A DNA stretch of 63,089 bases, the filler included. It is 5 parts of 5 records of this genome, joined end to end, with 100 filler letters (N's around TTAATTAATTAA, not from the genome) between each part and the next. Parts side by side here need not be neighbours in the genome. Positions count along the whole stretch, not along the records: positions 18,575 to 37,543 come from SRR31156797_2576; 4 more parts are not named here. One strand, given 5' to 3'. The position numbers and the translations under genes were made by a program. Positions 21,178-37,643 of this stretch are shown in pieces. Under the pieces are notes generated by a model. The model was not told where the DNA came from. It was given only the letters and a program-made list of their open reading frames with translations, and made no database searches. How positions within the stretch are numbered: position 1 is the stretch's first letter; each line of letters starts with the position of its first letter.

Positions 21178-21480
21178 ATGAACAAAAACAAAAAAAACAA
21201 AGAAAAAACGTTACTTGTGCAAATTCCTGAAAACTTGGCTGACGATGAAACAATTGAGTATTTAGGGTTTGGCTTGAGAGAGTTGTTTTTGAATTCAATA
21301 TCAAAAGAAACTCCACCGCCTGAAAAAAATAATCTTAAACAAGTTCGCTTGAAATTGGAGGGTAAAAATTTAGAATATTATCAAGAATTAGAATCTGAAT
21401 TTTCGTCAAAGAGGGCTTTAATTCGTACAGCTTTACGAATTGCAAAAGCATGTCCTAACACTCGTTATAAAATCCATTAG
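21178..21480 (+). CDS. Small putative DNA-binding protein (ribbon-helix-helix-like), first gene of the tra operon
   Basis: ATG at 21178 with GGGGAG RBS; 100 aa; strand-helix-helix pattern QVRLKL...SKRALIRTALR; 12 bp upstream of virB2. Confidence 0.55.
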   Translation: MNKNKKNKEKTLLVQIPENLADDETIEYLGFGLRELFLNSISKETPPPEKNNLKQVRLKLEGKNLEYYQELESEFSSKRALIRTALRIAKACPNTRYKIH

Positions 21481-21492
21481 GAGGGATTAAAA

Positions 21493-21780
21493 ATGAAAAA
21501 ACTTTTTGCAAAAATAAATCTGGCAATGTTGGCTGTAATGGCTTGGTCTGCAACCGCTTTCGGTGCTGATGACCCTTTTTCAAAAATGACTGATAAGGGA
21601 ACATCAATTCTCGAACAAGCCGAAGGGCCGATGGTTATCATTTGTGCAATTGCTATTGTCGCGGCAATGGTTGGCGGCTTGCTGGGGAAATTATCGCGCG
21701 GCTGGTGCATATCAATTATTGCATGTTCAATTATTGCCGGATCAGCAACAAGCATTGCTCAATTCCTCATTGGTAATTAA
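21493..21780 (+). CDS. virB2: VirB2/TrbC pilin
   Basis: Signal peptide, two hydrophobic helices, IIAGSATSIAQFL ending, position before virB3. Confidence 0.85.
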   Translation: MKKLFAKINLAMLAVMAWSATAFGADDPFSKMTDKGTSILEQAEGPMVIICAIAIVAAMVGGLLGKLSRGWCISIIACSIIAGSATSIAQFLIGN

Positions 21781-22073
21781 TGTCTGAAGAAAGCACTAAA
21801 AAACACACAGCGGTGATTTTTCCCGCATTATGGAAGCCCAACATGATTGTTGGGCTTCCTCAAGATTATTTAATGCTTGTTGTCATTTGCAGCTTAATCC
21901 CGTGTGTTATTAAAAAAAGTTTTTTGTACTTGTTTCTTGTAGCTCCTTTGATGTGGCTGCTTGGTTACATCTGGGCTAAAAGTGACCCTGAATTTTTGAC
22001 TGTTTGGCTTGTTAAGCTTTTTAAAGTCCAAACAACAAAAAGAAATAGCGAAGGAAATGATTACTATCCGTAG
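21780..22073 (+). CDS. virB3: VirB3
   Basis: ALWKPNMIVGLP, two TM segments, KSDPEF, terminal YYP. Confidence 0.85.
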   Translation: MSEESTKKHTAVIFPALWKPNMIVGLPQDYLMLVVICSLIPCVIKKSFLYLFLVAPLMWLLGYIWAKSDPEFLTVWLVKLFKVQTTKRNSEGNDYYP

Positions 22074-22082
22074 GGTTAAATT

Positions 22083-24428
22083 ATGAGTTTTTTAAGTCCA
22101 ATTTCAAATTTTATTTTACACTTAGCGGGTAGGAATTCAACAGGTTTGACCGTCCGTGATTTTACGCCAGTTGAAACAAAATGTCCGCTACTTGTAATTA
22201 ATGATAATTATTTGACCCGTTGTAAAGATGGGTCTGAATCAATTGTAATTGAATTAACAGGTAGAGATTACACTGGTTTAGATAAAGATGATTTGCATAA
22301 TTTTTTTATAGCGCGAAAAGCTTTTTTTGATCAGCTTCCTAGTGATATTTCTTGTTTAAGTCAGTCTCACCGTTCACAAATAAAAATCAATCTTTTTAAT
22401 GCTACTTATTCGAATAAATTTAGTTCTATTATCGCTGATAAATGGGCAAATAATTTCACAAAAAGTTTTCGAACTAAACATTATTTAGTGCTTACTCCTT
22501 CTTCTGCAAAAGGAGCACTTGCCGTGCTTCAATCCAGCGCGGATAAATTAACAGGATCACACAAAAAAAAGATAAAAGAAAAGCTTGAGAATGCTAAAAT
22601 AGATGCTCTTAACAGATTGAGTGCATACGGTCCCAGAGTTCTTGAAGGTGACGAGCTGGCTAGTTATTGGGCGAGGCTGCTAAATGGTAGAATTGTCAAA
22701 CATAAACTTGCTGAGAATGGCAAAATTGATGGATTACTTTCTGATACTAGAATTTTTTTTCCGAAAAATTCTAACCATGTTGTTTATGATGGACTGATTA
22801 GAAAATTCTCCTCTTTTGTATCTTTAAAACTTCCTCCTGAAGAATCTGGATATGAACTTTTAAATGCTTTGTTTTCTGTTCGCCGTGACATAAGCCTTTA
22901 TCAAACATTCTCTACATATGATAAAGATGTTGCACTTGCTATTGCTGAACATAGATTGGTTAACGAGGAACGTTTTCAAAAATCTTCAGAGCTATCAGTA
23001 AACCAGTTACAGGGGCTTTTAAAGCGCCTTCAGGCTGATGAGATTGATTTATTAGAGCATAGATTTGCTATTGAAATTTTTGGTAGATCTGAAGAAGAAT
23101 TAAAAGAAGCTATTCTTGATGTTCGTAGTGTTTTGGAGTCTCAACAGTACCGTATTTTTTTAGAAACAACGAATACCGAGGCTCTTTACTGGTCCCGTTT
23201 TCCCGGTATGCAGCAATTTAACAGCCGCAGCAGAAATATTACTTCTGAAAATTCTTCTCATTTCTGTACTTTCCCTACTGTTGGTGAAGGGTCGTCTAAA
23301 TGTTCATTTGGACCGTATCCCGTACAAGTTTTTAAGACTGACCAAGGGTCAGATTATTCTTTTATTTTTCACGAAAGCGAAGCACCACAAGCTTTAGGAC
23401 ATACTTTGATCATTGGGCAACCGGGATCAGGTAAAACGGTTCTATCTTCATTTCTGCAAAGTTCTTGCACAAAATTTTCTAACTTTCAAAATATGGCTTT
23501 TGACCGCCTGAATGGTCTTGAAATTGTAACTTTAGCACATGATGGTGAAGTTATTACCGCGAAAGATCTTGAAGGATTGGACATTAACCCATTCCAACTC
23601 CCAGACACACCAGAAAACAGAATGTTTTTAAGTGGCTGGGTAGCTGATCTTTTAAATGTAAATGATGAAAATGAAAAAGATATTATTTCAATTTCTATTT
23701 CAGAATTATTTGAACTACCCAAAGATCAAAGAAATTTGTCAAATTTGGCTCCTTCTTTTGGCCTCATGGAAAAGGGATCTCTTGGTCAACGATTAAAGAA
23801 ATGGCTTCCCGGTGGATCTAATGGTGCTTTCTTTTGTTCTGAAAAGGATGCTTTGAATTTTACAAATCCTTTTTTAACTTTTGATATGACAAGCATGCTA
23901 GATCGTCCTGACGTTTTAGCTCCACTATCTTCTTACATTTTTCACAGGATCAAAATTACAGATTTTCCCGGTGGTTTTCTGTTCTTTCTGGATGAGGCAC
24001 CTAACTATTTTAATCATCCAATTTTAGCCCCTCACATCCAAGTTGCCTTACTGGAGTGGCGAAAAAAGAACGGTGTTTTTCTTTTCGCCACCCAGACGGC
24101 AACAAGCATTTATAATTCTGATTTACGCGAAGCAGTTAAATCAGGTGTTGCTACCTATATTTTATTTCCTGACTCAAAAGCTGAGTTTAAAATTTATAAT
24201 GAATGTTTTGGCCTGACACATCAGGAATTTGAGTGGATTAAAGGCGTTCACCCTCGGCAATGCATGGTGAAACGTAAAACCGGAAACTCAGTAATTCTTA
24301 ATGTGGATCTGGCTTGTCTAAATAACTATCTCGGCTTTTTCGACTCCTCGGAAAAGTCGGTCAAAAAAGTCCGCGCACTACGCAAGGAGTACGGCAATGA
24401 ATGGAAAGAAGTTTATCGCAATTCTTAA
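22083..24428 (+). CDS. virB4: VirB4 ATPase
   Basis: GHTLIIGQPGSGKT (Walker A), INPFQL, FFLDEA (Walker B), WRKKNG, FATQ. Confidence 0.95.
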   Translation: MSFLSPISNFILHLAGRNSTGLTVRDFTPVETKCPLLVINDNYLTRCKDGSESIVIELTGRDYTGLDKDDLHNFFIARKAFFDQLPSDISCLSQSHRSQIKINLFNATYSNKFSSIIADKWANNFTKSFRTKHYLVLTPSSAKGALAVLQSSADKLTGSHKKKIKEKLENAKIDALNRLSAYGPRVLEGDELASYWARLLNGRIVKHKLAENGKIDGLLSDTRIFFPKNSNHVVYDGLIRKFSSFVSLKLPPEESGYELLNALFSVRRDISLYQTFSTYDKDVALAIAEHRLVNEERFQKSSELSVNQLQGLLKRLQADEIDLLEHRFAIEIFGRSEEELKEAILDVRSVLESQQYRIFLETTNTEALYWSRFPGMQQFNSRSRNITSENSSHFCTFPTVGEGSSKCSFGPYPVQVFKTDQGSDYSFIFHESEAPQALGHTLIIGQPGSGKTVLSSFLQSSCTKFSNFQNMAFDRLNGLEIVTLAHDGEVITAKDLEGLDINPFQLPDTPENRMFLSGWVADLLNVNDENEKDIISISISELFELPKDQRNLSNLAPSFGLMEKGSLGQRLKKWLPGGSNGAFFCSEKDALNFTNPFLTFDMTSMLDRPDVLAPLSSYIFHRIKITDFPGGFLFFLDEAPNYFNHPILAPHIQVALLEWRKKNGVFLFATQTATSIYNSDLREAVKSGVATYILFPDSKAEFKIYNECFGLTHQEFEWIKGVHPRQCMVKRKTGNSVILNVDLACLNNYLGFFDSSEKSVKKVRALRKEYGNEWKEVYRNS

Positions 24429-25254
24429 TTTAGTATTTTTTTTGTTTTCTTCTTCAGCGCAGGCCATGACCGTTAGTGACCCCGGTTCCTATGGCTATTT
24501 TGTACAACAGCTTTCAGAAGCAAAGCTTCAGTTAGCAGCAGCAAAAGAACAAATTGCTAACCAGATGCAAGAAATCAAAGTTCTGAATGACACGTACAAA
24601 ATGGCAACGGAACAGCTGAAGGAGCTGAACGATATTAAGGATCAGGTCAAAGGCTACTACGACCAAGGAAAAGCTTTTGTCGGCAAGATTAGAAGCATTA
24701 AAGCGGGCATTGAAGCAATCCCTTCAACCGTTATGGGCCGAGGCAAAGAAATGATGAGTCTGTTAGATGATATTGGCAATTTTACCGAGGCCGCTGATAT
24801 GCTGGATGGTATTTTTGGTGATCCACGCTCACCAAATTATGACCCGTGGCAGACATTAGGCCCTAAATACCAGCTACGCCAAAAAGGTTTAAAAGATTGT
24901 ATTGAACATTCTGAAAAACTTCTTGCCGGAATGAAAGATAAATTTGCAGGGCTTGAAGAGTTGATGAGTAAAATTGATGAAACCGAGAATATCAAGGAAG
25001 CGCAGGACTTAACAAACGTATTTCTCGCTTTAATTGCAAGTATTCTTAATGAGCAATTAGCTCTTGCGGCTCAAATTGGAGAATCGCAAGCCCTGCTTAA
25101 TTTCTCCGGTGTAAAAGATGGTGAATTAAAAGCCCAACAGGACCGAAGAGCGGAAAAGGTAAGTAAATATAATGAAGCCATTGAAGCCTATAAGAGTAAG
25201 GCCGGGGACACAGACAGTTCAGTAAAATCATTTATTGATATTGTTAACCAGTAG
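24397..25254 (+). CDS. virB5: VirB5/TrbJ-like minor pilin
   Basis: Signal peptide, MTVSDP, long Gln-rich helices, KIDETENIKEAQDL; between virB4 and virB6. Confidence 0.75.
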   Translation: MNGKKFIAILNLVFFLFSSSAQAMTVSDPGSYGYFVQQLSEAKLQLAAAKEQIANQMQEIKVLNDTYKMATEQLKELNDIKDQVKGYYDQGKAFVGKIRSIKAGIEAIPSTVMGRGKEMMSLLDDIGNFTEAADMLDGIFGDPRSPNYDPWQTLGPKYQLRQKGLKDCIEHSEKLLAGMKDKFAGLEELMSKIDETENIKEAQDLTNVFLALIASILNEQLALAAQIGESQALLNFSGVKDGELKAQQDRRAEKVSKYNEAIEAYKSKAGDTDSSVKSFIDIVNQ

Positions 25255-25262
25255 GTGAAATT

Positions 25263-26288
25263 ATGGAAATGGAAGCACTTTCACCTTTTGCCTTGATGGT
25301 TGTCAAAATCATGTTTCAATCTTTAAATCAATATTTAAATGAGATTGTTGTAATGATTCAAGCTAATTTTAAAGGTGCGGCAGTAGTTCTCACAACTATT
25401 TATATTATTTTTGTTTGCTATAAAGCTTTCTTTGGCAAAGCTTCAAAAGAAACTGTTATTGAATTTGCTGTTTCTGCTGCTGTTCTAGTCAGTATTGTTA
25501 GTTCTGTTATAGAAGGTGATTTTTATTTAGCGTGTGTAAAAGGATATGTTTCTTCTGTTTTGGAAACATGCAGTTGGTTTGCTTCGATAGGATCAGTTTC
25601 TAATTTTTTTGATATTTTTAGCAAGTTAGATGATGGTTTTGTTCTTATATATAAAACACTTTGGAATCAGGTCCCTAGTGGGTCTTTCTCCATGCTTACT
25701 GATCCAGAAGATTTTTTGGCTTATGGTTTTGCTATTCTTATTTTAATTTTTTCATACGGAATTATGTATTTTGCCTTTCTTTTACTGATCATAATCAGTG
25801 TCTTTACTTTATACATTCTTTTTACCCTTGGTATTCCTTGTGTTTTTTTAGCTTCATTTAAAGAAACAAGACATGTTTTCTGGGCTTGGTTCAAAGAAGT
25901 AATTAAATTCTCTATGGTGATGGTTTTTGCTTCTATAACCATGTCAATTTCTTACACGGGAATAGATTCAGCTTTAAAAATTTACGCAAATACAACAGTT
26001 GGCGTTGAAATTTTTAATTCTGGTTTTGCTGCTGTGGTTGCATGGTCAATCATCTGTTGGGGTTTGCTTTTAAAAAGCCCCGATTTGGCAGCAGCTTTAA
26101 CAGGTGGAACGCCCGGAGCTACCACAGGGATCGCGGCGGCAATGAGTATCGCCGGGGGTGGTAGTTTAATGGCTATGAAAATGGGTTTAGGTAAAACAGG
26201 GGGTGCGGCTGGAGCTGGGCTTAAAAAAGCTGGCGGGGCTGCGTATGGCTACGCAAAAGATAAATGGCTTAGAAGAGCAGGCGAATAA
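25263..26288 (+). CDS. virB6: VirB6/TrbL polytopic membrane protein
   Basis: Multiple TM segments, FKETRHVFWAW, PDLAAALTGG, Gly/Ala-rich tail. Confidence 0.88.
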   Translation: MEMEALSPFALMVVKIMFQSLNQYLNEIVVMIQANFKGAAVVLTTIYIIFVCYKAFFGKASKETVIEFAVSAAVLVSIVSSVIEGDFYLACVKGYVSSVLETCSWFASIGSVSNFFDIFSKLDDGFVLIYKTLWNQVPSGSFSMLTDPEDFLAYGFAILILIFSYGIMYFAFLLLIIISVFTLYILFTLGIPCVFLASFKETRHVFWAWFKEVIKFSMVMVFASITMSISYTGIDSALKIYANTTVGVEIFNSGFAAVVAWSIICWGLLLKSPDLAAALTGGTPGATTGIAAAMSIAGGGSLMAMKMGLGKTGGAAGAGLKKAGGAAYGYAKDKWLRRAGE

Positions 26289-26300
26289 GGAGTTTTTTTT

Positions 26301-26909
26301 ATGCCAGAACAATCATGGTTAAATACAAATACAGTTAATAGACGGCTATGCTGGGTAATCATTTTTCTCGTTTTTATCATTGGTGCTATGGCCTTTAGCT
26401 ATACTTTAATTCTTCCATTGAAAGAAATAGAAGTGCGATATGTTGAATTTTCATCTGATGGAAATCATTTTGTTCAAGTAATTTCTGCAAATGATGTACT
26501 AACAACAAATGATACATTGTTGAGCGTCACAGTTAGAGATTATGTTGTTTCTCGTGAGACTGTAGATAAAATTACAAGTGATGAAAGGCTTAATAAAGTT
26601 CTCCATATGAGTAGTAGTGAAGTTTTTGAACGTTTCAAGCTTTCTAATAGAAAAATTATTATGGAAGGTGAGAACGGTTTCAAAAGATCCATTGAGGTTA
26701 TCCGAGATAACCGACTTGGAAAAGGAATTCATGAAGTTGCTTTTAAAACTCATGATAGAGCACCAATGTCAATAGATGCGACAACTACTAAATGGAAAGC
26801 AATTTTACATTATCGGGTTCTTCCTAAAAAAACTGTCAAATTTGAAGATAGTTTTAAAAACCCGACGAATATTGAAATTGTAAACTATACAATTTCAAAG
26901 GAGAAATAA
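26301..26909 (+). CDS. virB8: VirB8
   Basis: One TM then LPLKE, YVVSRE, NPTNIEIVNY. Confidence 0.85.
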   Translation: MPEQSWLNTNTVNRRLCWVIIFLVFIIGAMAFSYTLILPLKEIEVRYVEFSSDGNHFVQVISANDVLTTNDTLLSVTVRDYVVSRETVDKITSDERLNKVLHMSSSEVFERFKLSNRKIIMEGENGFKRSIEVIRDNRLGKGIHEVAFKTHDRAPMSIDATTTKWKAILHYRVLPKKTVKFEDSFKNPTNIEIVNYTISKEK

Positions 26910-26910
26910 A

Positions 26911-27552
26911 ATGAAGAACCTTTGTAGATTCTTTGTCTTCATTCTTTTTTCTGCGGCTTTAATTCTTTTGGCTGTTCCGGCTTTCTCGGCTGTTCAGGAT
27001 CTGAATAGCCAAGGCCAGCAGTTCAATTATGAAGGTGATGCGCCGCTTGATAACAAGGTGAGTTTAAATGTTGTTCAAAATGCTTGGAATGAATCTAAAC
27101 CATCACAGGGCATTAAAAAATTTACATATAAGCAAAGCAATGTCCTTAAAATATCCACTAGAGTTTATATGAAAACTTCGCTCGTTCTTCCTGAAGGTGA
27201 AATTATTGAAGGTTGGACAACTGGAGATAATTTTAATTTTAAGTTTGAACAAATTCCTACTCGTTCAAATATTTTACAAGCATGGCCTATTTACCCTGAA
27301 GCAGACACCAATCTGCAAATTTTCGGGAAGTCCGGCAATATCTATGTTTTTTACATTCGCGCTTACAAGGTCAAATCAAACCATATTCCTGACTTAGTTG
27401 TTTATCTGAATGATCCATATTTCCCCGGTATTATAAAAGATGAACCGAAAAAGGTGGAAGTGATTTCGGAAACTTCCACACTTGCCGGGGAATACCTTCG
27501 TAAATTGAACCTTCCTTCACCTGAAAAGCTGAATTTTGACTACGTTTTTTAA
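26911..27552 (+). CDS. virB9: VirB9/TrbG N-terminal domain only
   Basis: Signal peptide; TSLVLPEGE, GD, TNLQIFGKSGNIYVF; stops right after LNFDYVF, where the C-terminal domain normally begins. Confidence 0.85.
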   Translation: MKNLCRFFVFILFSAALILLAVPAFSAVQDLNSQGQQFNYEGDAPLDNKVSLNVVQNAWNESKPSQGIKKFTYKQSNVLKISTRVYMKTSLVLPEGEIIEGWTTGDNFNFKFEQIPTRSNILQAWPIYPEADTNLQIFGKSGNIYVFYIRAYKVKSNHIPDLVVYLNDPYFPGIIKDEPKKVEVISETSTLAGEYLRKLNLPSPEKLNFDYVF

Positions 27553-27563
27553 GGATAAGCATC

Positions 27564-27959
27564 ATGAAAAAAACATCCATTTTATTACTGATTCTATTTT
27601 GTCTTTGTTCCGGTTGTGTGGCCCGTAAAACGGGAGGAGTTAGAACAAATAGTAATGACCTTGTTCCCTCTCCCTGTGCTGATCTCGAAATACAAGGTGA
27701 TGTTTCATTGAAGCCTATTATGGTTTTTGATGATGGAAACTGGACCTATTTTCAAATGAACAAGCAGGACAATTTTGACGGTAAAAAGGTTCCTGCCATT
27801 TATGAAATACAAGACAAATTTGAAACTCCGGCAAATGTTCGCGTTGTCGGTTCTACTCTCATAGCTGAAAGTATCGGCACGAGCTGGGCCTTGCGTAGTG
27901 GTGATAAATTTTTTTGTGTCCGCAAGAAAAGTCTTGTTCAAAGTCAGAGGAATAACTAA
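27564..27959 (+). CDS. VirB7-like lipoprotein fused to the VirB9 C-terminal domain
   Basis: Own RBS (AAGGA) and ATG; lipobox CSGC; SPCA motif; then GDVSLKPIMVFDDGNWTYF...PAIY...NVRVVG...LRSGDKFFC. Confidence 0.8.
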   Translation: MKKTSILLLILFCLCSGCVARKTGGVRTNSNDLVPSPCADLEIQGDVSLKPIMVFDDGNWTYFQMNKQDNFDGKKVPAIYEIQDKFETPANVRVVGSTLIAESIGTSWALRSGDKFFCVRKKSLVQSQRNN

Positions 27960-29054
27960 ATGACTGGTCCTCCTAAAATAGGTGCTGCCAGCTCAGGTAT
28001 GGGCAAAGGGGCAATCATAGCAATTGTGGTTGTAATGACTCTTTTTATTGGTGGTCTTGCTTTTATGGTTATCTCTGCTCGTTCCAATAGGAACGATGTG
28101 GAAGAAATCAGTTATCAAGGTCCTGTCCATGATAACAGCGAAGCATTTTTTGAAATTCCTGAAGAGCCGAAACTAGTTGAGGAACTAAAAATAGAAACAC
28201 CTCCACCACCGCCTCCGGTGGAAGTAAAAGAAACGCCTCCACCACCGCCTCCACCGCCTGTAAAAATGGTTGAATTACCTTCTCTTAATAGGCTGCTTAA
28301 GACTGTGCCGGATAAAAAAGAATCCGTAGCGGATAGAATTAATAATCAAAGACGTATGGCGGCAAGCTCCAGCTTCAATAATAAACGCAAGAAATCAGAT
28401 CCGGGATGGATCAACAAACAGGATAACTGGAATGAGTCTAAAACAGAGTCAAGTTATCCGGTTGATATGAGCCGTGTAATTCCAATGAATAAGTATATTC
28501 CGGCTATTTTGGTCAATGATGTTGTTAGTGAGCTTGGTTCAAAAGTTACCGCAGTTATTCAACAAAATGTCTATGGTGGTCATGGTCGTTTTGTTTTGAT
28601 TCCCGCAGGTTCTTCAGCGATTGGTTTTTTTGCTCCATTGAAGAAAGCCGGGGATACAAGATTACGGATTATATGGCACCGGATTATTACCCCTGAGGGA
28701 ATTAACATTCATTGCGGTAATGCTGAAATGGCTGACGCAATGGGTAGATCCGGCATTACTGGTGAGATTGACAGCAAGGTCTTTGACCGAATCGGCTTAC
28801 CTTTAATGATTTCAGGAATTCAAAGTATCATGGCGTATGCAATGCCTGTCGGAAACCGTAACCAGCAAGTTGTCATTGAAAATTTTGGTCAAGGTGTTTC
28901 GACACTGAGCCAAAAAGTTTTCGATGCAAATATAAACATGAAACCTATTGTAAAAATTCCTGCGGCTTCAAGGATTTTGATTAGTCCGATGAAAGATATT
29001 TGGTTTCCAAAGCCAAAACGAGGACAAATTCAATTATCTGCGGTTGTCTCTTAA
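27960..29054 (+). CDS. virB10: VirB10/TrbI
   Basis: N-terminal TM, Pro-rich linker, IPAILVND, VLIPAGS, IIWHRIITPEG, DAMGRSG, IPAASRI. Confidence 0.93.
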   Translation: MTGPPKIGAASSGMGKGAIIAIVVVMTLFIGGLAFMVISARSNRNDVEEISYQGPVHDNSEAFFEIPEEPKLVEELKIETPPPPPPVEVKETPPPPPPPPVKMVELPSLNRLLKTVPDKKESVADRINNQRRMAASSSFNNKRKKSDPGWINKQDNWNESKTESSYPVDMSRVIPMNKYIPAILVNDVVSELGSKVTAVIQQNVYGGHGRFVLIPAGSSAIGFFAPLKKAGDTRLRIIWHRIITPEGINIHCGNAEMADAMGRSGITGEIDSKVFDRIGLPLMISGIQSIMAYAMPVGNRNQQVVIENFGQGVSTLSQKVFDANINMKPIVKIPAASRILISPMKDIWFPKPKRGQIQLSAVVS

Positions 29055-29277
29055 AACGAATTTTGTTCGTGCCGATCGCAAAAATAAGCCGGCTAATAGT
29101 GCTTATTGAGGGTTGGCCATAGCCGATCTGATCAAGCTTCAGGAGAATTTTTAATTTCCTGCCGAATAAAATTCAAAATCGGGCTTTGCCCGACACATTG
29201 AAACGTAGCCTTAAGCGGAGTGACCCGGCCCCGGTTCTTTTACCCAGAAGGGGCCATAATTATAAAGGAGTGAAATT

Positions 29278-31239
29278 ATGAAAGCAGTCAAAAATTATTT
29301 AATTTATGCCCTTTTTGTTTCTGCCATTGTGCTTGCTTTGTTTTCTGCCTTTGTATGCCTTGATTGCCCCTCGGCGCATGCTAACGAGGAGGATGGAGTT
29401 TTGCTTGAACTGACAAAACCCATCATTGTTAAACCTCCTGAAGATCAGTCGCGGAACAGTCAAGCCGTTTTTGCTGACCTTCAGGAGGATGCGGTTAAGC
29501 TCGGCTTGGATCGTATTTCTATTATGGGGTCAATTTCTTATAAAAAGAAGGGTACCAAGAAAATCAACAGCAAGGATGTTGATTTCTATGTTGTGAATAT
29601 CACATGGCATTCACTCGCCAGTGATTCAAAAACTGAATCCATATCACCTCCGCTTAAATCTGCATTGCAGACAGGCGATAAACGAATAGAAGTAGGGCAA
29701 GAGGTTTGGGCGCGCGGACACCTTCAGGCCCTGAAAAGTGCGCTTCAGCGACTTAAAACCGAAAAGAAAAAGCAGGACTCACCACAGATTAAAGAGGAAG
29801 ACACAGACACCAGCTCAACCGGATCAACTGTTTCTGATCTTGGCAGCGGCAATTCTGGTTCATGGTGGGATTCTTCTGATTCTGGGTCTTCCTCTTCTGA
29901 TAGCAAAGAAGCCACAACAACGGCTGCTGTTAATACCCTTGTTGAACCTTGTCCCGACTTTGTAGACGAAAACGTTTTAAAAGTTTTTGAACAGACTAAA
30001 AAAACAGTCGGTACAACAGCTGGTGTCTGCACTAATACCGGGACGGAATATAAAATTCAAAAGGAAACCGGGATTTGTGGTATCCAGTTCGATTTTGAAA
30101 CAGGCAAAGCCTACAAAATGGAACAATGGTATTATCTCCGTGGAACCGGAGGGAATCAGACTGAAGGAGGCCAGACCCAAAAAATCAATATTGGTGGATG
30201 CCGTAAATCTGAGACAGATTACAGTCTGTATGAAACTGAGAATAGTTGCACCCCGACCATTACCGAGGATCAGGTTATTCCTTTGTACCGTATGGCCTAC
30301 AAGAACAGTGAAGGCAATGAAAAATTTGCTTCAGAGTGTGCCGCTAAAGACGGGGAGCCTATCGCTCTTCAGGTTGAGTATTGTGGATACGATCACGATA
30401 AAATCAACAATGTTTCCTATGCAACTGGACGTAAATATTACGTCAAAAATGATGAAAAAATTTATGTCGGTGAATGCCTCCGGTTGACCGACAAAAGTTT
30501 TCCTCATGAGTTTGAAGAAACTGGCTGGGCCATGAATGACGATGAAAAATATGGTCAAATAATGGCAAAACGTTTTTTCTTTCTTAATGCGACAAAAAAA
30601 CAATTTGTTTCAAATGATTCTGAACCCCACGGTGTCCCGATTGCATATCTTGTTAATGCAACGTTTGAAAAAAAGTTTCAGACTGCAAAAAATGCTAACT
30701 TTACCGCTCCTGCATCAGGCACGTATAATTTAACTTTAATCGGTAGTGGTGATGCTACGGGCTATTCTTCTAATGGTTTTTTTAAAAACACATTCGTTTA
30801 TCTGTCAGCAGACACAGACTATTTAATTGAGATTGGGCGGAATAGTACCAACACTAAAATTTTCCAAGATTCTCAATTAATAGCTAGTTCAGAAGGTGGA
30901 CACAATGACTCAGGCCCCCCATATATTGTAAATAACACACCTAATGGTTTTCAAGGTGCAACAGGTTATACGAACTATCCAACCCTTGATGGATACGAAA
31001 CCGCAAAATCTCCATATTATGAATTGTTGTCTGGTAGTTGGGGTTGGTATTCTTGTTCGGCTCGTCCTAACGGTGCAGGTTATGGTGGTGGTTTTGGTAG
31101 TCTTGTTTGTAATACTGCGGAAATCAGTCGCAGTGATAAATTTAAATATCACCCCGGTATTGGTGGTTCTGGTTTTTTTGAAGCTCTTTGGATGGCTATT
31201 AAATATGTCCGCCCTGATGGATCTATTTATTCTGAATAA
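29278..31239 (+). CDS. Exported Cys-repeat protein with C-terminal Gly-rich domain (adhesin-like), function unknown
   Basis: AAGGAG RBS; signal peptide; Ser-rich linker; 4-5 repeats of about 45 aa with Cys pairs; FTAPASGTYNLTLIGSG...GAGYGGG...GIGGSG. Confidence 0.75.
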   Translation: MKAVKNYLIYALFVSAIVLALFSAFVCLDCPSAHANEEDGVLLELTKPIIVKPPEDQSRNSQAVFADLQEDAVKLGLDRISIMGSISYKKKGTKKINSKDVDFYVVNITWHSLASDSKTESISPPLKSALQTGDKRIEVGQEVWARGHLQALKSALQRLKTEKKKQDSPQIKEEDTDTSSTGSTVSDLGSGNSGSWWDSSDSGSSSSDSKEATTTAAVNTLVEPCPDFVDENVLKVFEQTKKTVGTTAGVCTNTGTEYKIQKETGICGIQFDFETGKAYKMEQWYYLRGTGGNQTEGGQTQKINIGGCRKSETDYSLYETENSCTPTITEDQVIPLYRMAYKNSEGNEKFASECAAKDGEPIALQVEYCGYDHDKINNVSYATGRKYYVKNDEKIYVGECLRLTDKSFPHEFEETGWAMNDDEKYGQIMAKRFFFLNATKKQFVSNDSEPHGVPIAYLVNATFEKKFQTAKNANFTAPASGTYNLTLIGSGDATGYSSNGFFKNTFVYLSADTDYLIEIGRNSTNTKIFQDSQLIASSEGGHNDSGPPYIVNNTPNGFQGATGYTNYPTLDGYETAKSPYYELLSGSWGWYSCSARPNGAGYGGGFGSLVCNTAEISRSDKFKYHPGIGGSGFFEALWMAIKYVRPDGSIYSE

Positions 31240-31244
31240 TTATA

Positions 31245-31284
31245 AGCCGAGTTGGAGCAATGCGCCCCAGCTCGGCTATTTTTT
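31245..31284 (+). terminator. Terminator-like hairpin between the adhesin-like gene and virB11
   Basis: AGCCGAGTTGG...CCAGCTCGGCT followed by ATTTTTT; the virB11 RBS follows immediately. Confidence 0.65.
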
Positions 31285-31295
31285 GGAGTTTATAT

Positions 31296-32201
31296 ATGGC
31301 TATTTCTGCACTCTTAAAAAATTCACTTAAGCCCTTTGAAAAGTATTTCAAAATCAAAGGAGCTAAAGAAATTTCTATCAATAAGCCGGGAGAGGTTTGG
31401 ATAGAAACCTATGACGGGTGGACTGTAAAGAAAGAACCTGAATTTACGCTGGAATTTTTGCAAAGATTTGCAAAACATTTAGCAACTGAAGTGGGCAAAA
31501 CATATAATTTAGAGAATCCAATTATATCAACTTCTATTCCTCCTTATGGATACAGAATTATGATTATTGGATTCGACAATTGTATATCACAATTTGGTTG
31601 CTCAATAAGAATAGGAAAAGCTGAAAGGTATCCTATTAAATCTTATTTTGGTGGAGATAAGAAAAAAGCTGATAAATTCATAGAACATTTAGCTGGTAAT
31701 ACTTCTATGCTTATTTCGGGTGGTACAGGATCAGGTAAGACAACCTTTATGAATAGTCTTCTTGTTCACATTCCTCACGATCAACGAGTTATTACAATTG
31801 AGGATTCAGCTGAATTAATTGTTGATCAACCTAATTGTCTAGGTCTGCTGAAACATAAATTTGGAACAAATATTTCTTACAGCATGATTCTTGATTGCGT
31901 CCGGCGCTTACGTCCAGACAAAATACTTTTAGGTGAAATGGATAGCGATAATGCTTTTTCATTTTTAGATGCTGCAAACTCTGGGCACGGTGGATCTCTT
32001 ACAACCATTCATGCATCTAGTCCTGTTCTTGCCGCTCATGCACTGGCTTCAAAGGTAAGCGAAAGCAAAGACGGTTTAGACGAAAAAGGGGCTTTAAAAA
32101 AGGTTGTACAAACAATTGATGTGATTGCTCAAATTTATAATGACCGGAAAAAAAATACTTATTCAATTGAATATGAATTTGTTAATGAAATGGGGTTATA
32201 A
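31296..32201 (+). CDS. virB11: VirB11 ATPase
   Basis: Likely start MAISALL (31296); EISINKPGEVW, SGGTGSGKTT, ITIEDSAEL, LRPDKILLGE, SGHGGSLTTIHA. Confidence 0.95.
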   Translation: MAISALLKNSLKPFEKYFKIKGAKEISINKPGEVWIETYDGWTVKKEPEFTLEFLQRFAKHLATEVGKTYNLENPIISTSIPPYGYRIMIIGFDNCISQFGCSIRIGKAERYPIKSYFGGDKKKADKFIEHLAGNTSMLISGGTGSGKTTFMNSLLVHIPHDQRVITIEDSAELIVDQPNCLGLLKHKFGTNISYSMILDCVRRLRPDKILLGEMDSDNAFSFLDAANSGHGGSLTTIHASSPVLAAHALASKVSESKDGLDEKGALKKVVQTIDVIAQIYNDRKKNTYSIEYEFVNEMGL

Positions 32202-33790
32202 TGAAAGCTTTAGTTCTTGATTTAATATTTGTCCTTCTGGTCTTGTTTGGCCTGATCTGTGGCTTGTATTTCGGTGGTGTTAATTTTCATCTGGGCATGA
32301 CCTTAAATGATTTTCCCGTATGGACATATAAGGCCGCCCTTTTCGCGCTGACACTATTAGCGGTTATGGTTTTGTTTAATCCTCTTCGTAAAGACAAAGA
32401 CCTTTACGGCGGGGCGCACTGGGCCACTGAAAGCGAAATCAAAAAAATGAAATTACGCACCGAGGATAATGGAATGATCCTCGGTGTACATAAAAATAAG
32501 TATCTGCGCATGGAAGAGCCTTTAAGCGTTCTTGTTTATGCGCCTCCCGGCTCCGGTAAGACAGCGGCTATTATCATCCCCTCACTAATTGCATCGGGCA
32601 ATAGTGTTATTGTCCATGATCCCAAAGGTGAGCTTTACGATAAGACCGGAGCGCACCGGGGAGAATTTAGCAATGTAATCAAATTTGCCCCGGCTGAAAG
32701 TGGCTCTTGTCAGTGGAACCCACTTTCAAGAAAGGAACTGCCGGAAAAATGGTCTGACCCTGAAGCAACCGAAGCAGAGAAAGAAAAAAGTTGGTCACAA
32801 ATTGAAGTTCATGTTTCCCGACTTGCAGCGGCACAGCTCCCTTTGCCCAAATCAGGCCCAGAACATTGGATGCGTAACGCTAGAACACTTTTTGAATTTT
32901 GGACTTTGTACCTGATACATAAGAACGGAGAAACTTCTATACCTGAAATGCTGAAAACGTCACTTGATGGTGATACCCGTGAATTGATTGAAGCTGTTCT
33001 TGATGAAGGTGACGAGCTGCCGGAAAAAGTTCGGTTATACGCTAATGGTCTTATGTCTAAAGCTGATCAGGAATTTGGTTCTATATTTTCGACTTTTCAG
33101 AGTTCATTAGAGGTTTTTTTAGATCCTTATGTATCTGAAAATTTGTCTTCCTCTGATTTTTGTTTTTCGGATCTCCGGAAGGAATGCACATCTATCTATC
33201 TCATGGTTGCAAACCATGATCAGGGACGACTTAGAACGCTGTTAGCGACCTTCTTTGAAGTTGCTACGGTGTGCCTGATTTCCAAGGAACCAGAGGAAAA
33301 GGATTGTTCTGTTACTCTTTATCTTGATGAGTTTGTAAGACTCGGCAAAATGGAGGAAGTTATCAACCTTCCGGCTATTTCCCGTTCATATCGGGCTAAC
33401 ACTGTATATGTAGTTCAGAGCGTAAACCAGCTTGACGATATATACACGCCTTCAGGAGCTGAGAAGCTACGCCAAGCATGCGCGTATCTTTGTGTGTTCG
33501 CCCAGAACGAACCCAAGTTCGCTAAAAATATTAGCGAGTCCATAGGAAACAAGACCCGCAAGAAGCGTTCTAAATCACAGCAGGATGTAAAAATATTTGG
33601 TTCTGAATCCGTTAGTGATGAGGGTGTACCGCTGATTCTTCCGCAGCAAATACAATCATTGCAGTTCGGCAAGCTGCTTGTGCTTGCCCAGAACAACTTT
33701 GAAAATCCCGTGCTTGCTGACGCTGCTTTTTGGTTTAAAGATCCTGTTGTTAAACCCTATGTAGAGAAATGCTTAAATTCTCATGCTTAA
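32201..33790 (+). CDS. virD4: VirD4/TraG type IV coupling protein
   Basis: Two N-terminal TMs, YGGAHWA, APPGSGKT, HDPKGEL, WNPL, LDEF, VQSVNQL. Confidence 0.95.
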   Translation: MKALVLDLIFVLLVLFGLICGLYFGGVNFHLGMTLNDFPVWTYKAALFALTLLAVMVLFNPLRKDKDLYGGAHWATESEIKKMKLRTEDNGMILGVHKNKYLRMEEPLSVLVYAPPGSGKTAAIIIPSLIASGNSVIVHDPKGELYDKTGAHRGEFSNVIKFAPAESGSCQWNPLSRKELPEKWSDPEATEAEKEKSWSQIEVHVSRLAAAQLPLPKSGPEHWMRNARTLFEFWTLYLIHKNGETSIPEMLKTSLDGDTRELIEAVLDEGDELPEKVRLYANGLMSKADQEFGSIFSTFQSSLEVFLDPYVSENLSSSDFCFSDLRKECTSIYLMVANHDQGRLRTLLATFFEVATVCLISKEPEEKDCSVTLYLDEFVRLGKMEEVINLPAISRSYRANTVYVVQSVNQLDDIYTPSGAEKLRQACAYLCVFAQNEPKFAKNISESIGNKTRKKRSKSQQDVKIFGSESVSDEGVPLILPQQIQSLQFGKLLVLAQNNFENPVLADAAFWFKDPVVKPYVEKCLNSHA

Positions 33791-34266
33791 CGCTGTTGTT
33801 AGTCCTATGCTCTTCAGTATGCTTTGCTGACGAGCTGGGCTTTCAGGCAGCCGCTAAAATGTACCGTGTTGATTCGTTCAAACTCCGTGCTATTTCTTAT
33901 GTCGAATCAAGGCATAATCCTAAAGCTGTGAACCGGAATAAAAATGGCTCCAAGGATCTCGGACACATGCAAATCAATAATAAGGTGTGGTCTAAATCCC
34001 TTGATGGTCACTATGAGCAACTAGACGATTTTCCGAAGTACTGCACACAAGTCGGCGCGTGGATCTTCCGGCAGTGCGCGGATAGATACCCTGCTAGTGT
34101 TTGGGACCAGTTTGCATGTTATCATGCCGGAATTGGATACACTGACGCTAAACGCCTAGTCGTTACCGACCCCGGCAACCGGGAAAAGTGGAAGAAGAAA
34201 GAAAGGCTCGGCTTGATCTATGCCAACAAGATTTATAGAGCTATGAAGATTTTGAATGGTCAATAA
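33769..34266 (+). CDS. Lytic transglycosylase (VirB1/TrbN-like)
   Basis: AISYVES (catalytic Glu), AVNRNKNGSKDLGHMQIN, ACYHAG. Confidence 0.9.
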   Translation: MLKFSCLTLLLVLCSSVCFADELGFQAAAKMYRVDSFKLRAISYVESRHNPKAVNRNKNGSKDLGHMQINNKVWSKSLDGHYEQLDDFPKYCTQVGAWIFRQCADRYPASVWDQFACYHAGIGYTDAKRLVVTDPGNREKWKKKERLGLIYANKIYRAMKILNGQ

Positions 34267-34435
34267 AATGTTCGGACTATGGAATCTGAATAAAGTTCTA
34301 AAAAGGCGTTGCCGGTCGATATGGTTTTATGAACTTTATTCGGTACAAGTTCAATTTTCATGCTTCAGCTCGTGCGGATCTGATCAGGCCGGGAGTCCAT
34401 GCCCCCCTCATCGAGGAGTTACCGAGACTCATAAC

Positions 34436-34491
34436 AGAAGAAAGTTCGTAAAAAGGTGGTGCCAGGGCAACCCTTTTACGAACTTTCTTCT
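34436..34491. terminator. Long hairpin, probable bidirectional terminator between convergent units
   Basis: Perfect 18-bp inverted repeat AGAAGAAAGTTCGTAAAA (34436-34453) / TTTTACGAACTTTCTTCT (34474-34491). Confidence 0.75.
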
Positions 34492-34508
34492 TTCTTAAAT
34501 TTAACAAT

Positions 34509-34829
34509 CTACTGGACTAAAGCGCATTCTATTTTTGTTTTTCCAGCTTTCCGATTAGCATAAGACTTTTGAGCATCCCGTTTAAGTTGAACTTGATAAA
34601 GTTTGTTCGCAAATTTTTCTATCTCAATTTTAGTTATCTTTTCATCTGATAAAATTTCTTTGTATAATTCCAGAAGTTCAAAGTATACTTTGTACTCTTT
34701 TTTATATTCTTTGATTTTTTGGTTTAGCTCGGCATTCGTTACGACTTTGGAATCATCACAGTGTGCAAGCATTGGATTGCTAAAGCCAGCGAGAACAATC
34801 AAACTGAGCGTGAGTATTAATTTTTTCAT
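34509..34829 (-). CDS. Small secreted helical hypothetical protein
   Basis: Start MKKLILTL (ATG 34829) with AAGGA RBS; signal peptide. Confidence 0.7.
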   Translation of the reverse strand: MKKLILTLSLIVLAGFSNPMLAHCDDSKVVTNAELNQKIKEYKKEYKVYFELLELYKEILSDEKITKIEIEKFANKLYQVQLKRDAQKSYANRKAGKTKIECALVQ

Positions 34830-34998
34830 TTTTCCTTTCTTTTGTTTATTCCCCGTTCCCACATGAATTTTGATTTTTTATTTGTATTAAAGCGAGGGTA
34901 GAAATTTAGTTCTTCACCCTCCCCCGCTAATCCTTAAATATTTGACATATCCGCTAAGAGGTTTTGTCTAATCTGTTGCTGCATGGCTTCATTGTCGT

Positions 34999-35027
34999 CC
35001 TCTCCCATCCAGCGCACCGCGGCAGCT
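34999..35027. repeat. 29-bp direct repeat, copy 1
   Basis: CCTCTCCCATCCAGCGCACCGCGGCAGCT; one mismatch to 35465-35493. Confidence 0.9.
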
Positions 35028-35337
35028 AGTCAGCAACCGATTTACGCATTTGATTAAGCTGTTTTGACTTGTCGATTTGCTTAATACGCTCGAAAAAGGG
35101 CCTTACATCGTCAAGTCTAACTTCATCGTTGGCGATAGCTTTTTTATACAATGCTTTCAGTTCTGGGTGTTCAGGGCTGTAATCAGCATACAATTTATCA
35201 ATTTCCTGCAAGACTTCTGTAGCCATTACGGGATTCCTTGAGTCATCGAATTGTTTTTCCAATTCGTAGTAACCTTTAAAGGTAGTCGGAATAGCTACGA
35301 TGATGAAAACAAGGAGAAGTGCTATTTTAATGTTCAT
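35026..35337 (-). CDS. Small N-terminally anchored hypothetical protein
   Basis: Start MNIKIALL (ATG 35337) with GGAG RBS; one TM/signal segment, helical body. Confidence 0.7.
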   Translation of the reverse strand: MNIKIALLLVFIIVAIPTTFKGYYELEKQFDDSRNPVMATEVLQEIDKLYADYSPEHPELKALYKKAIANDEVRLDDVRPFFERIKQIDKSKQLNQMRKSVAD

Positions 35338-35464
35338 TTTTAGCTCCATTTTTATTTGTGTCACAAACGGCACCTATTCCGGTGTCGTACCTGATTTGTT
35401 TCTAAATCCCCCCTTTGAGGCTTCAGCCGAAAAGGGGGGATAAAATTTTCACTCGCTTCGTGTC

Positions 35465-35493
35465 CCTCTCCCATCCAGCGCACCGCGCCAGCT
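35465..35493. repeat. 29-bp direct repeat, copy 2
   Basis: CCTCTCCCATCCAGCGCACCGCGCCAGCT. Confidence 0.9.
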
Positions 35494-35505
35494 CCGGCAA
35501 CATTC

Positions 35506-35778
35506 TTAGTGAGTTGAAATGTAATCTGCGAAGTGAAACATAAAGCCCAGCATCATTGCTGCAACCACGAATGCAAGAGACAAAGCAATGTCTTGACGAA
35601 GTCTTCGTTTAAATCCCATCAGCACCCCAGCCGGAAGGGGACATATGAATAAAAACCAAGCATACGGATAGCCGCTTGATTTGATAGATGGGTAGCATAG
35701 TGTAAATGCTGCTAAAAACATGGAAGAGGCAAAACCAGCTATCACTAGTTCCCTGCTATATTTCTTTAAAGTTTTCAT
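35506..35778 (-). CDS. Small three-TM hypothetical membrane protein
   Basis: Start MKTLKKYS (ATG 35778) with GAGG RBS; three hydrophobic segments. Confidence 0.7.
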   Translation of the reverse strand: MKTLKKYSRELVIAGFASSMFLAAFTLCYPSIKSSGYPYAWFLFICPLPAGVLMGFKRRLRQDIALSLAFVVAAMMLGFMFHFADYISTH

Positions 35779-36258
35779 TTTAAGCCTCATTTTCATTTGT
35801 GCCACGTTCCGCACCTGTTGGTGATGATTCGTGTGTTGGCTGTATAATTCCCCCCTGCTTTAGCAGGGGTCTTGCCTCTGATAATGTTTTTGCCATTGAA
35901 TAGACCGGAGTAATTTCCGCCATTTAGACGAAAAATTAAGGTTGAAGTTTACTTAACACCCGCTTTGTGTCCCATCTTGCGTGTTACGCGCCTTCCCGGT
36001 AGCATAACTATGCTATTTTAGGGAATATTTTTTGAAACTTTCTTCCCTTTTTTTGATGAAAATCAAAAATCAGCCCAGAAGCTCGATACCGTGCGCGACC
36101 TTTAAGTATGGATGAAATACATGTTCAGCTATCAGGGTCACTTATATTAAGAGCCGGATTTGCCCGTGTCGAGAATCGCCGTAGATGCGTTTTTGAGTGC
36201 TGCGGCAACCTCGGCCTTCAGAAAATCGTCTTAATCGCTTCTGAAGGCCGCTACGAAG

Positions 36259-36540
36259 TTATTCGCCTCTCATCAGCCCTTCATCGTCTTCATCGCAGGC
36301 CCCACACCCTCCATCAAAAAATCCACCGGAAATCACAGCGAGAATAAGATTTCTACTTCTGGGGTTATCCACATCGTCATTGAAACGCAGGGTTCCGGTC
36401 CCTGATCCTCCAAAAATTTCAATCCCCATAACCTCGGCCTCTTTCGCGGCCTTGGATATCCTACGCGCTATGGATTCAATCTTCTTGATTTGCTCGTCAT
36501 TGAATCCGGCGGCGCGACATTCATCTATATTGATTGACAT
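36259..36540 (-). CDS. Hypothetical protein (mobile-element type)
   Basis: Likely start MSINIDEC (ATG 36540) with GAGGTG RBS; follows the upstream ORF by 13 bp. Confidence 0.65.
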   Translation of the reverse strand: MSINIDECRAAGFNDEQIKKIESIARRISKAAKEAEVMGIEIFGGSGTGTLRFNDDVDNPRSRNLILAVISGGFFDGGCGACDEDDEGLMRGE

Positions 36541-36553
36541 ACGTGCACCTCTT

Positions 36554-36811
36554 TTAACCAGAGGTTGATTCAACGGCATTTGGAAAAATAAGATCCTCTC
36601 CAAAGTCGGCTCCTACTGCGTCCGCTGCTGGCCCGAAGTCCGCACTACGATGATTCATCATGTAATCATGAATCTCGTCAAACTTCTCCACGTTGAACAA
36701 GGAAACCGTAGGATCTCCAATTGTATAAAAGCCAATGCGCTTGCTGGGGCATTCCTTCAGAAGCTTGTTGACCTTGTTCACCCATGCCTTTTCTGCTTTA
36801 GTTAATTCCAT
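36554..36811 (-). CDS. Hypothetical protein (phage/plasmid type)
   Basis: 85 aa, AGGAG RBS, protein-like composition (MELTKAEKAWV...CPSKRIGFYTIGD). Confidence 0.7.
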   Translation of the reverse strand: MELTKAEKAWVNKVNKLLKECPSKRIGFYTIGDPTVSLFNVEKFDEIHDYMMNHRSADFGPAADAVGADFGEDLIFPNAVESTSG

Positions 36812-36894
36812 TATCTTCTCCTAACTCTGAAGTTTACTTATTGCCCGATCTGAGCGGTACAGGGGCGTGCTACTCGGAACCGCCCATATCATGA

Positions 36895-37131
36895 TTATTT
36901 GGATTCAGGCTTAATATTTTTTCCCGGCTCTACTTCACCATCAATAACCTTTTTATAAAAATGAGCTTGAGAAGTATTAGAGACACACTTGTAAAGGTCT
37001 TTTGCTTGTTTCAAATAAAGTTTTGCCTTGAGAAAAAATATGAATGAAATAAGAAGGCAAATTATTGAAATAACTCCTATAACCATAATGTGTATGGCGT
37101 AAGGATTTTTCTCTACTATTAAAACATCCAT
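36895..37131 (-). CDS. Small single-TM hypothetical protein
   Basis: AGGAGG RBS, one hydrophobic helix. Confidence 0.6.
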   Translation of the reverse strand: MDVLIVEKNPYAIHIMVIGVISIICLLISFIFFLKAKLYLKQAKDLYKCVSNTSQAHFYKKVIDGEVEPGKNIKPESK

Positions 37132-37212
37132 TTTGGCACCTCCTGCCGGAACCCGCGGTGACGGGGTGGTTGATTTTGGTTCAAGCTTCCATGCGCCGGG
37201 GGGTTATTCTCT

Positions 37213-37543
37213 CTAAAAATGATCTCTTCTTACATCTGCATCTTGAGGAGCATTAAAGCCAACCTCACGGAGAGCCTTAAAGATCCCGGAACCCTTATTT
37301 TCAAAACTCTTGTGGAGCTGCGCGTACCGTTGCTTTGTTCCCCACGCATGAGGGCAATAGTCATTAAAGTAGGTGGAGCCGTCAAAACAATCTGTAAGGA
37401 TATCTGCTTCAGCCTGTGTCGAGATTCCAATTTCTTCAGCACTGTCAATTTGCTGAATCCATTTTTCACAAACAGACTCAACAAAAGATTTGTCGAGTTC
37501 ATTTGCTTCAGCAATACAATCCGGCACCTCAAGACGATGCCTA
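37213..37543 (-). CDS. Hypothetical protein, probably 5'-truncated by the contig end
   Basis: Frame stays open to the contig edge (RHRLEVPDCIAE...). Confidence 0.5.
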
Positions 37544-37643
37544 NNNNNNNNNNNNNNNNNNNNNNNNNNNNNNNNNNNNNNNNNNNNTTAATTAATTAAN
37601 NNNNNNNNNNNNNNNNNNNNNNNNNNNNNNNNNNNNNNNNNNN
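37544..37643. other. Artificial contig linker
   Basis: 44 N + TTAATTAATTAA + 44 N. Confidence 0.99.

Follow-up and report, generated by a model that had tools for sequence, protein, structure and literature searches.

How did two unrelated small genes come to be enclosed by similar flanking sequences beside a conjugation operon? The question is raised by a locus in the window (the whole stretch of DNA that was analyzed, 63,089 nt), in which three short open reading frames (ORFs), termed ORF3, ORF2, and ORF1 in the order in which they are read, face a type IV secretion system (T4SS) operon from the minus strand. The three ORFs and their flanks are called the array here. They are located on the second contig of the window (positions 18575-37543; 18,969 nt), with 1.7 kb of the contig left on the upstream side of the array. 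A previous interpretation, made from the letters alone (the sequence-only reading), had described a cassette-like array that arose by gene capture or shuffling. In the explanation favored here, to which a probability of about 0.45 was assigned, the array would be an ordinary three-gene envelope accessory operon, in which tandem duplication of an expression module of ca. 450 bp was followed by the exchange of the coding part in one copy. The features discussed below are collected in Table 1.

The leaders of ORF3 and ORF2 are copies of one repeat. They are identical at 36 of 46 positions (78%) without gaps, are separated by 441 nt, and were matched to each other by BLASTN against the window with an E value of 3.4e-4. 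Both copies close on the ATGAA of the ORF start, and the GTG that had been noted 36 nt ahead of each ATG is present in both (counted from the GTG, the ORFs open at 35373 and 35814; the ATGs are at 35337 and 35778). A translated N-terminal extension from the GTG was considered and rejected; the copies differ there mostly by non-synonymous substitutions, and no Shine-Dalgarno sequence lies ahead of the GTG. For these reasons, the ATGs are the likely starts. A Shine-Dalgarno sequence is found 5-6 nt ahead of each ATG (GAGG for ORF3, GGAG for ORF2, and AGGA for ORF1). The core pattern of the leader has two exact matches in the window, both in the array; two matches with 3 mismatches were also found on other contigs, where 0.88 would be expected by chance. 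On alignment, about 100 nt, reaching back from the ATG as far as the hairpin, are homologous between the two units when indels are allowed. The leader of ORF1, which had been described as a looser match, is indeed loosely like the other two, but the alignment did not separate this resemblance from chance.

Downstream, ORF3 and ORF2 share a 29-nt trailer repeat. As had been reported, the two copies differ at a single position (28/29 identical) and are 466 nt apart; they are in direct orientation. When up to 3 mismatches were allowed, the 29-mer had 2 matches in the 63,089 nt, and 0 of 100 shuffles gave any. Homology around it spans about 55 nt, and the stop codon of ORF2 is inside copy A. The trailer is purine-rich and resembles a Shine-Dalgarno sequence on the mRNA strand (GGAUGGGAGAGG), where the Shine-Dalgarno-like purine tract reads GGGAGAGG. 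In copy A, an AUG located 6 nt past this tract opens a 12-codon mini-ORF; in copy B, that codon is ACG. The mini-ORF was dropped as a candidate gene because this start is not conserved. The sole mismatch between the 29-mers also breaks a small hairpin that can be formed by copy B.

A stem-loop precedes each of the three leaders, at or close to the places where C/G-run hairpins had been seen. In a pattern search of the whole window, stem-loops 1 and 2 were the only C-run/G-run hairpins found. Stem-loop 2 has 17-nt arms with 88% complementarity and appears in both the minimum-energy and the centroid folds; the sequence of stem-loop 3 is unlike those of the other two. The flank homology is thus wider than the sequence-only reading had perceived, reaching from the hairpin to the ATG and into the surroundings of the 29-mer. 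With the homology so extended, the repeat unit comprises about 450 bp (stem-loop, leader, ORF, and trailer) and occurs twice in tandem. The layout of conserved flanks around variable genes was accordingly confirmed for two modules, those of ORF3 and ORF2.

The coding parts of these two modules are not alike. The DNA interiors of ORF3 and ORF2 were aligned with a score of 10, compared to 9.9 +/- 1.3 for codon shuffles, and 165 of 300 shuffles reached the observed score. BLASTP found only a 16-residue hydrophobic stretch (E 0.062), and the topologies are unlike (three membrane spans versus one). The homology that accompanies a simple tandem duplication of paralogous genes was therefore not found between ORF3 and ORF2. 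For ORF2 and ORF1, the picture is less sure. Composition-adjusted BLASTP returned an E value of 1.9. The local BLOSUM62 score, however, was 53 against 28.6 +/- 5.5 for shuffles (2 of 500 reached it), and a global alignment had 25% identity with a collinear EL.ALYK stretch. The two proteins also have the same architecture and similar lengths, and they may be distant, old paralogues. Hence, of the earlier description of three unrelated ORFs of 90-106 residues on the minus strand, the sizes, the strand, and the lack of relationship between ORF3 and ORF2 were upheld, and the independence of ORF2 from ORF1 was put in doubt. The same holds for the possibility, raised with that description, that the ORFs are diverged paralogues: ORF3 and ORF2 have no similarity, and ORF2 and ORF1 may be such a pair.

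Promoter and folding scans bear on how the genes might be expressed. Within the array, the only promoter-like sites were at 35805-35777 and 35364-35336; both overlap start codons, and no site able to serve the individual genes was found in the promoter scan. Upstream, the intergenic stretch at 35870-36258 contains no ORF of at least 40 residues with a family match and a single weak sigma-70-like site (36172-36144). A single-strand promoter of the kind known as Frpo was sought by folding both strands of 35845-36260; a cluster of short hairpins was observed, with no long stem. At the other end, the gap between ORF1 and the T4SS operon holds a long hairpin with 22-nt arms that are 95% complementary (fold energy -35.6 kcal/mol with a z score of -6.0; none of 200 shuffles was as stable). 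A further hairpin is located at 34288-34341, and both are in the 240-nt gap between the lytic-transglycosylase gene of the T4SS operon and ORF1. Because no usable promoter was found in the units and the strong terminator comes only after ORF1, the three genes are read as one operon.

On this basis, ORF3, ORF2, and ORF1 (35778 down to 34509) would form one minus-strand operon on a contig resembling a conjugative plasmid, transcribed from 35870-36258 and ending at the strong hairpin that it would share with the convergent T4SS operon. The units of ORF3 and ORF2 would be tandem copies of one module, consisting of a G/C stem-loop, a Shine-Dalgarno leader, an ORF, and a purine-rich trailer. That they are tandem copies of one unit is argued by the repeat families, which are collinear, in the same order, and at nearly equal spacing (441 and 466 nt). 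The identity of the flanks is graded, with indels (about 60-65% around the hairpin, 78% for the leader, 97% for the 29-mer), which fits an old duplication under unequal constraint. The module would have been copied by local duplication; consistent with this account, neither the repeats nor the C-run hairpins occur elsewhere in the window. An additional replacement event is required, because ORF3 and ORF2 have no coding similarity despite flanks of 78-97% identity. The coding part of one module copy may later have been replaced precisely between start and stop; alternatively, recombination within the flanks could have brought in an allele from a sibling plasmid. The ORF1 unit may go back to an earlier copying of the ORF2 unit and have diverged much further. 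The flanks would have been kept as expression signals, with the leader as the translation-initiation region and the stem-loops as intercistronic structures that stabilize or partly terminate transcripts. The 29-nt trailer would be under tighter constraint, for the sake of some partner, and no dedicated capture machinery would be involved.

The proposed stem-loop role has precedent. In polycistronic operons, stable intercistronic stem-loops that have no U-tracts and are followed by the next Shine-Dalgarno sequence fit differential mRNA stability or partial termination. The hairpins of the array are similar in that they have no U-tracts and stand ahead of the Shine-Dalgarno sequence of the next gene. 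The 29-nt trailer and the near-identical leaders, however, are left unexplained by this comparison.

Several points weigh against the operon explanation. Plain duplication and divergence does not predict the mismatch between ORF3 and ORF2, whereas a cassette model supplies the replacement. Transcription as one operon is only inferred, and the intercistronic role of the stem-loops, which have no U-runs, is a proposal. The conservation of the 29-mer implies a function for which the explanation does not account. The relationship between ORF2 and ORF1 is weak by BLASTP, and mosaic sibling sequences just upstream (described below) hint at recombinational exchange in the neighborhood. Finally, no relatives of the array were found in searches of plasmids, phages, and metagenomes, so the account is without comparative support.

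Table 1. Features of the array and its borders, with window coordinates, strand, and the analyses by which they were located.
Feature	Position	Strand	Basis
ORF3, 90 aa, three hydrophobic spans, orphan	35506-35778	-	ORF call, hydropathy
ORF2, 103 aa, N-terminal membrane span and helical bundle, orphan	35026-35337	-	ORF call, hydropathy, AlphaFold2
ORF1, 106 aa, signal-like N-terminal span and K/E-rich helical domain, orphan	34509-34829	-	ORF call, hydropathy
Leader copy B (46 nt), containing GAGG Shine-Dalgarno and ATG of ORF3	35774-35819	-	repeat scan (family D1)
Leader copy A (46 nt), containing GGAG Shine-Dalgarno and ATG of ORF2	35333-35378	-	repeat scan (family D1)
Trailer copy B, 29-nt repeat; homology out to about 35445-35502	35465-35493	-	repeat scan (family D3), alignment
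Trailer copy A, 29-nt repeat	34999-35027	-	repeat scan (family D3)
Stem-loop 1, C-run/G-run, ahead of ORF3 leader	35848-35869	-	7-bp stem in RNA fold, self-BLAST palindrome, pattern
Stem-loop 2, C6...G6 with inner stem, ahead of ORF2 leader	35406-35441	-	inverted repeat I6, fold, pattern
Stem-loop 3, GAGGGU...ACCCUC, ahead of ORF1	about 34890-34921	-	RNA fold
Long hairpin between T4SS operon and ORF1, likely bidirectional terminator	34436-34491		inverted repeat I2, fold
Intergenic stretch upstream of array, predicted operon promoter region	35870-36258	-	ORF, promoter, and fold scans

The sibling sequences were found in the contigs of the sole public run that contains the stretch; no RNA run with it was listed. 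A second, independent assembly of this run reproduced the 18,969-nt contig letter for letter (0 differences) at a word depth of 385; as the run is probably the source of the stretch, the agreement is not independent support. At least three other contigs of the run, of similar depth (400-486 versus 385), share parts of the upstream region with the present contig at 85-90% likeness (35961-36068, 36142-36243, 36452-36522, and 37200-37543). The first two of these pieces recur in two of the high-depth contigs. The siblings skip from 36068 to 37141 and from 36243 to 37143, such that the content between the conserved pieces differs, and they are unlike the present contig from 35961 towards the array. 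Because the upstream pieces recur with skips, sibling elements are concluded to coexist in the sample and to be mosaic at this place. The present contig itself ends inside one of the shared repeats.

These siblings keep alive the main rival route, the import of genes through recombination in the flanks. In its general form, the leader and trailer would act as portable homology, and homologous recombination among co-resident siblings would swap or stack small envelope genes; no dedicated recombinase would be needed, and a comparable process has been suggested for the conserved upstream (CUP) repeats of IncN plasmids. The precise exchange of two unrelated ORFs, from start codon to stop, inside conserved flanks speaks for such shuffling, as does the divergence of the siblings towards the array. 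There are only two modules, however, and with 46 and 29 nt the flanks offer little length for homologous recombination to be efficient. Elsewhere in the source run, no contig had a match of at least 85% to leader A, stem-loop 2, or trailer B, although the comparison may miss matches below about 40 nt; in the bin that covers them (35033-35665), the only depth was that of the contig itself (385.4). Shuffling through the flanks is regarded as unlikely, yet as an alternative to be taken seriously.

Could the units instead be mobile one-gene cassettes? In a site-specific capture system, the hairpins, the 29-mer, or both would be the sites of a recombinase encoded elsewhere, such as an integron integrase, the host Xer proteins (as for pdif modules), or a hairpin-recognizing HUH enzyme. 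Each unit does contain one ORF and one hairpin, and the 29-mer is far better conserved than its surroundings. Pfam and NCBIfam scans of the ORFs found no recombinase domain on the 18,969-nt contig, in agreement with the sequence-only reading; as the contig is short and incomplete, a recombinase could lie elsewhere. The contigs of the source run list no joint within 34509-35870, although contigs cannot show rare excision products.

The comparison with integrons is instructive. Integron cassettes are each bounded by the core sites R'' (RYYYAAC) and R' (GTTRRRY), and their attC sites are imperfect palindromes of 57-141 nt. The array resembles an integron array in its short, unrelated, same-strand ORFs, which look promoterless and are each followed by a hairpin element, and in its one upstream region. 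In contrast, when both strands of 34400-36300 were searched for pairs of the two core sites, only one pair was found (34592/34505), located inside ORF1; none was at the junctions or repeats. The hairpins are short, perfect G/C stems that differ from one another in loop and length and are not attC-like. Moreover, only two units share flanks, and each has its own Shine-Dalgarno leader. Integron arrays lie next to an IntI tyrosine recombinase with attI and Pc; no integrase was found on the short contig.

The pdif modules of Acinetobacter plasmids provide a second comparison. They are delimited by 28-nt sites (XerC arm, spacer, XerD arm) that occur in inverted pairs around each module. Like the units of the array, they are small modules of one or two genes, are associated with repeats of about 28 nt, and occur on plasmids that have no recombinase of their own. 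The 29-mers, however, are direct repeats rather than an inverted pair. A XerD-arm word with up to 2 mismatches occurred 37 times in the window (50 expected), and never in the repeats. Within the array, the sole such word is at 34940-34950 and is not accompanied by a XerC-like arm, and no XerD-arm-like word is in or beside the repeats. A 7-nt GGTGCGC is the only likeness to the XerC-arm consensus. As far as these tests were run, the array would thus not appear to be either an integron or a set of pdif modules.

Database searches for the repeats were also negative. The DNA of 34200-37543 had no match in a plasmid collection or a phage collection. An 18-nt core of the 29-mer matched at least 119 stretches in metagenome contigs and one in viral contigs; among the 120 matches listed, none extended beyond 25 of 29 positions, and all were in unrelated DNA rich in G+C. 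A degenerate pattern of the leader had 0 matches in viral contigs. Given their absence from the rest of the window, the collections, and the other source-run contigs, the flanks appear to be local to the array. No positive evidence was thus obtained for the proposed gene capture: only two modules share flanks, no core-site pair is at a junction, and Xer-type arms do not exceed chance. Site-specific capture is judged very improbable. Scarcely more credence is given to a broader idea, in which the units would be mini-cassettes of an undescribed gene-exchange system of plasmids, with the leader and the hairpin-adjoining trailer as joints and a recombinase encoded off the contig or by the host swapping small envelope genes of an exclusion or immunity type among sibling conjugative plasmids.

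The uneven conservation of the flanks suggests that they might be kept by a shared control. If the trailer had drifted at the level of the leader (78%), the chance of 28/29 identity would be about 0.007 by our arithmetic. This improbability argues that the trailer is under some constraint or has some function. A single regulator, small RNA, or RNA-binding protein could bind both the leader (its palindrome and Shine-Dalgarno region) and the trailer; ORF3 and ORF2 would then be a co-regulated pair, and their flanks would be kept by function whatever their origin. The conservation is indeed focused on the translation-initiation region and the 29-mer. In PMC6289460, the CUP elements of IncN plasmids are described as sites bound by the regulator ArdK upstream of several genes, namely at the ardB, ardK, and repA promoters. 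The CUPs of pKM101/R46 are similar to the present leader in being repeated, non-coding DNA directly upstream of different accessory genes of conjugative plasmids. Here, in contrast, the leader ends at the start codon, no usable promoter was found, and there is a 3' repeat as well. No ArdK-like protein, nor any other regulator gene, was recognized on the contig in family scans. The arms of the leader palindrome (TGTGACACA / CGTGGCACA) are just 3-4 bp long, and in copy B they do not pair perfectly. Rfam yielded no match of weight, only sub-threshold look-alikes of eukaryotic miRNAs and snoRNAs on the terminator hairpin. Because shared control leaves unexplained how unrelated ORFs came to have the same flanks, it complements the other explanations; as the principal account, it is considered rather improbable.

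The products of the three ORFs look like envelope proteins. This assignment, made previously, was supported by hydropathy: ORF3 has three spans, whereas ORF2 and ORF1 each have a single one at the N-terminus, followed in ORF2 by a soluble domain. The single-sequence AlphaFold2 model of ORF2 had a mean pLDDT of 75 (85-92 over about residues 41-100). Compared to known structures, its best VIA-align Z score was 6.9, to generic helical bundles, and Foldseek returned no match at an E value of 0.001 or better. The predicted structure of ORF1 was poor (pLDDT 54). All three proteins are orphans: no family was found in Pfam, NCBIfam, or PHROGs, nothing was retrieved in a word-indexed search of 5.8 billion proteins (limited to proteins of near length), and tblastn against plasmids gave no match. 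In a protein atlas, the best scores were 0.89 (ORF3) and 0.79 (ORF1), below the level of a lead. ORF1 had a sub-threshold match to DUF6488 (residues 1-47, E 0.0037, 17.6 bits versus a cut-off of 27). A phmmer search with ORF2 against 1.84 billion representatives produced a lone 28-residue match in a 1023-residue protein, which was taken as spurious.

With no homologues in the libraries searched and low recognition values in the protein atlas (1992 and 1878), it could be asked whether the ORFs are genes at all, or whether the repeats are products of chance or assembly. On the other side, the ORFs are non-overlapping and on the same strand, each with a well-spaced Shine-Dalgarno sequence, they encode clear membrane or signal segments, and the model of ORF2 is confident. 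The repeat statistics oppose chance, and the second assembly reproduced the contig without a difference. That nothing functional is present is therefore the least credible of the explanations considered.

A role of the three proteins in entry exclusion or immunity, as first suggested, is a guess from their size, envelope location, and neighborhood. The entry-exclusion proteins TrbK and Eex are small envelope proteins whose genes usually lie inside the transfer operon. Like them, the proteins of the array are small, membrane-anchored or exported, and encoded beside a VirB/D4-type T4SS. They differ in that no sequence or family match was found, and ORF1 has no canonical lipobox (LAHC). Exclusion proteins are poorly conserved, so a blank family search says little.

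The surroundings of the array were also surveyed. The window has four N-run junctions (18475-18574, 37544-37643, 51751-51850, and 57917-58016), each with two 44-N blocks located 12 bases apart, and it therefore represents five separate contigs. The G+C contents of these contigs differ (about 0.33-0.52), so neighbors across the N blocks are not linked. The contig of the array carries small genes without assignment, a minus-strand gene for topoisomerase III (Pfam and NCBIfam scans), and, on the plus strand, a VirB/D4-type T4SS operon encoding VirB2, B3, B4, a VirB5-like protein, B6, B8, B9 (two ORFs), B10, an unmatched 653-residue protein, VirB11, VirD4, and an SLT lytic transglycosylase, whose gene stops at 34266. 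Everything beyond 34509, up to the end of the contig, is on the minus strand; ORF and family scans thus corroborated the claim that the array and the T4SS operon converge. The closest deposited coupling protein (VirD4) has 45.5% identity and is from the Nitrosospira plasmid pNRS527-2, in which the gene order is the same; a small-gene array comparable to the present one was not found downstream of its VirD4 gene. A search of genome contigs with VirD4 found one distant Rickettsiales locus (33% identity), which was uninformative for the array.

Other genes of the contig deserve brief description. The VirB9/CagX sequence is spread over two plus-strand ORFs in different frames (26911-27552 and 27564-27959) that cover profile positions 2-121 and 121-197, through either a frameshift or a natural split. 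The 653-residue protein (29278-31239, plus strand), between VirB10 and VirB11, has no family match; a homologue occupies the same place in pNRS527-2 (28% identity over 484 columns, E 1e-36), which suggests a lineage-specific T4SS component. Upstream of the array, two adjoining minus-strand genes (36554-36811 and 36259-36603) match PHROG families that have no assigned function (phrog_1714 at 5.5e-31 and phrog_19257 at 6.8e-26). The first has homologues (45-59% identity) on 143 enterobacterial and other plasmids, and it was also found on two viral contigs. In the two records examined (an IncI2 plasmid and a Citrobacter plasmid), this gene is followed by a hypothetical gene of similar size. The two genes look like a conserved pair of plasmids and phages.

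If the array is the ordinary operon that we favor, it represents one more accessory operon of orphan envelope genes next to a T4SS, and its value would be mainly in its three products as candidates for roles in exclusion, in immunity, or in association with the pilus, on a plasmid lineage for which the closest deposited coupling protein has only 45% identity. If, on the other hand, the flanks are joints for exchange, the array would exemplify a small-scale cassette mechanism on conjugative plasmids that is distinct from integrons and pdif modules, and it would offer a handle on how plasmids diversify their surface and exclusion genes.

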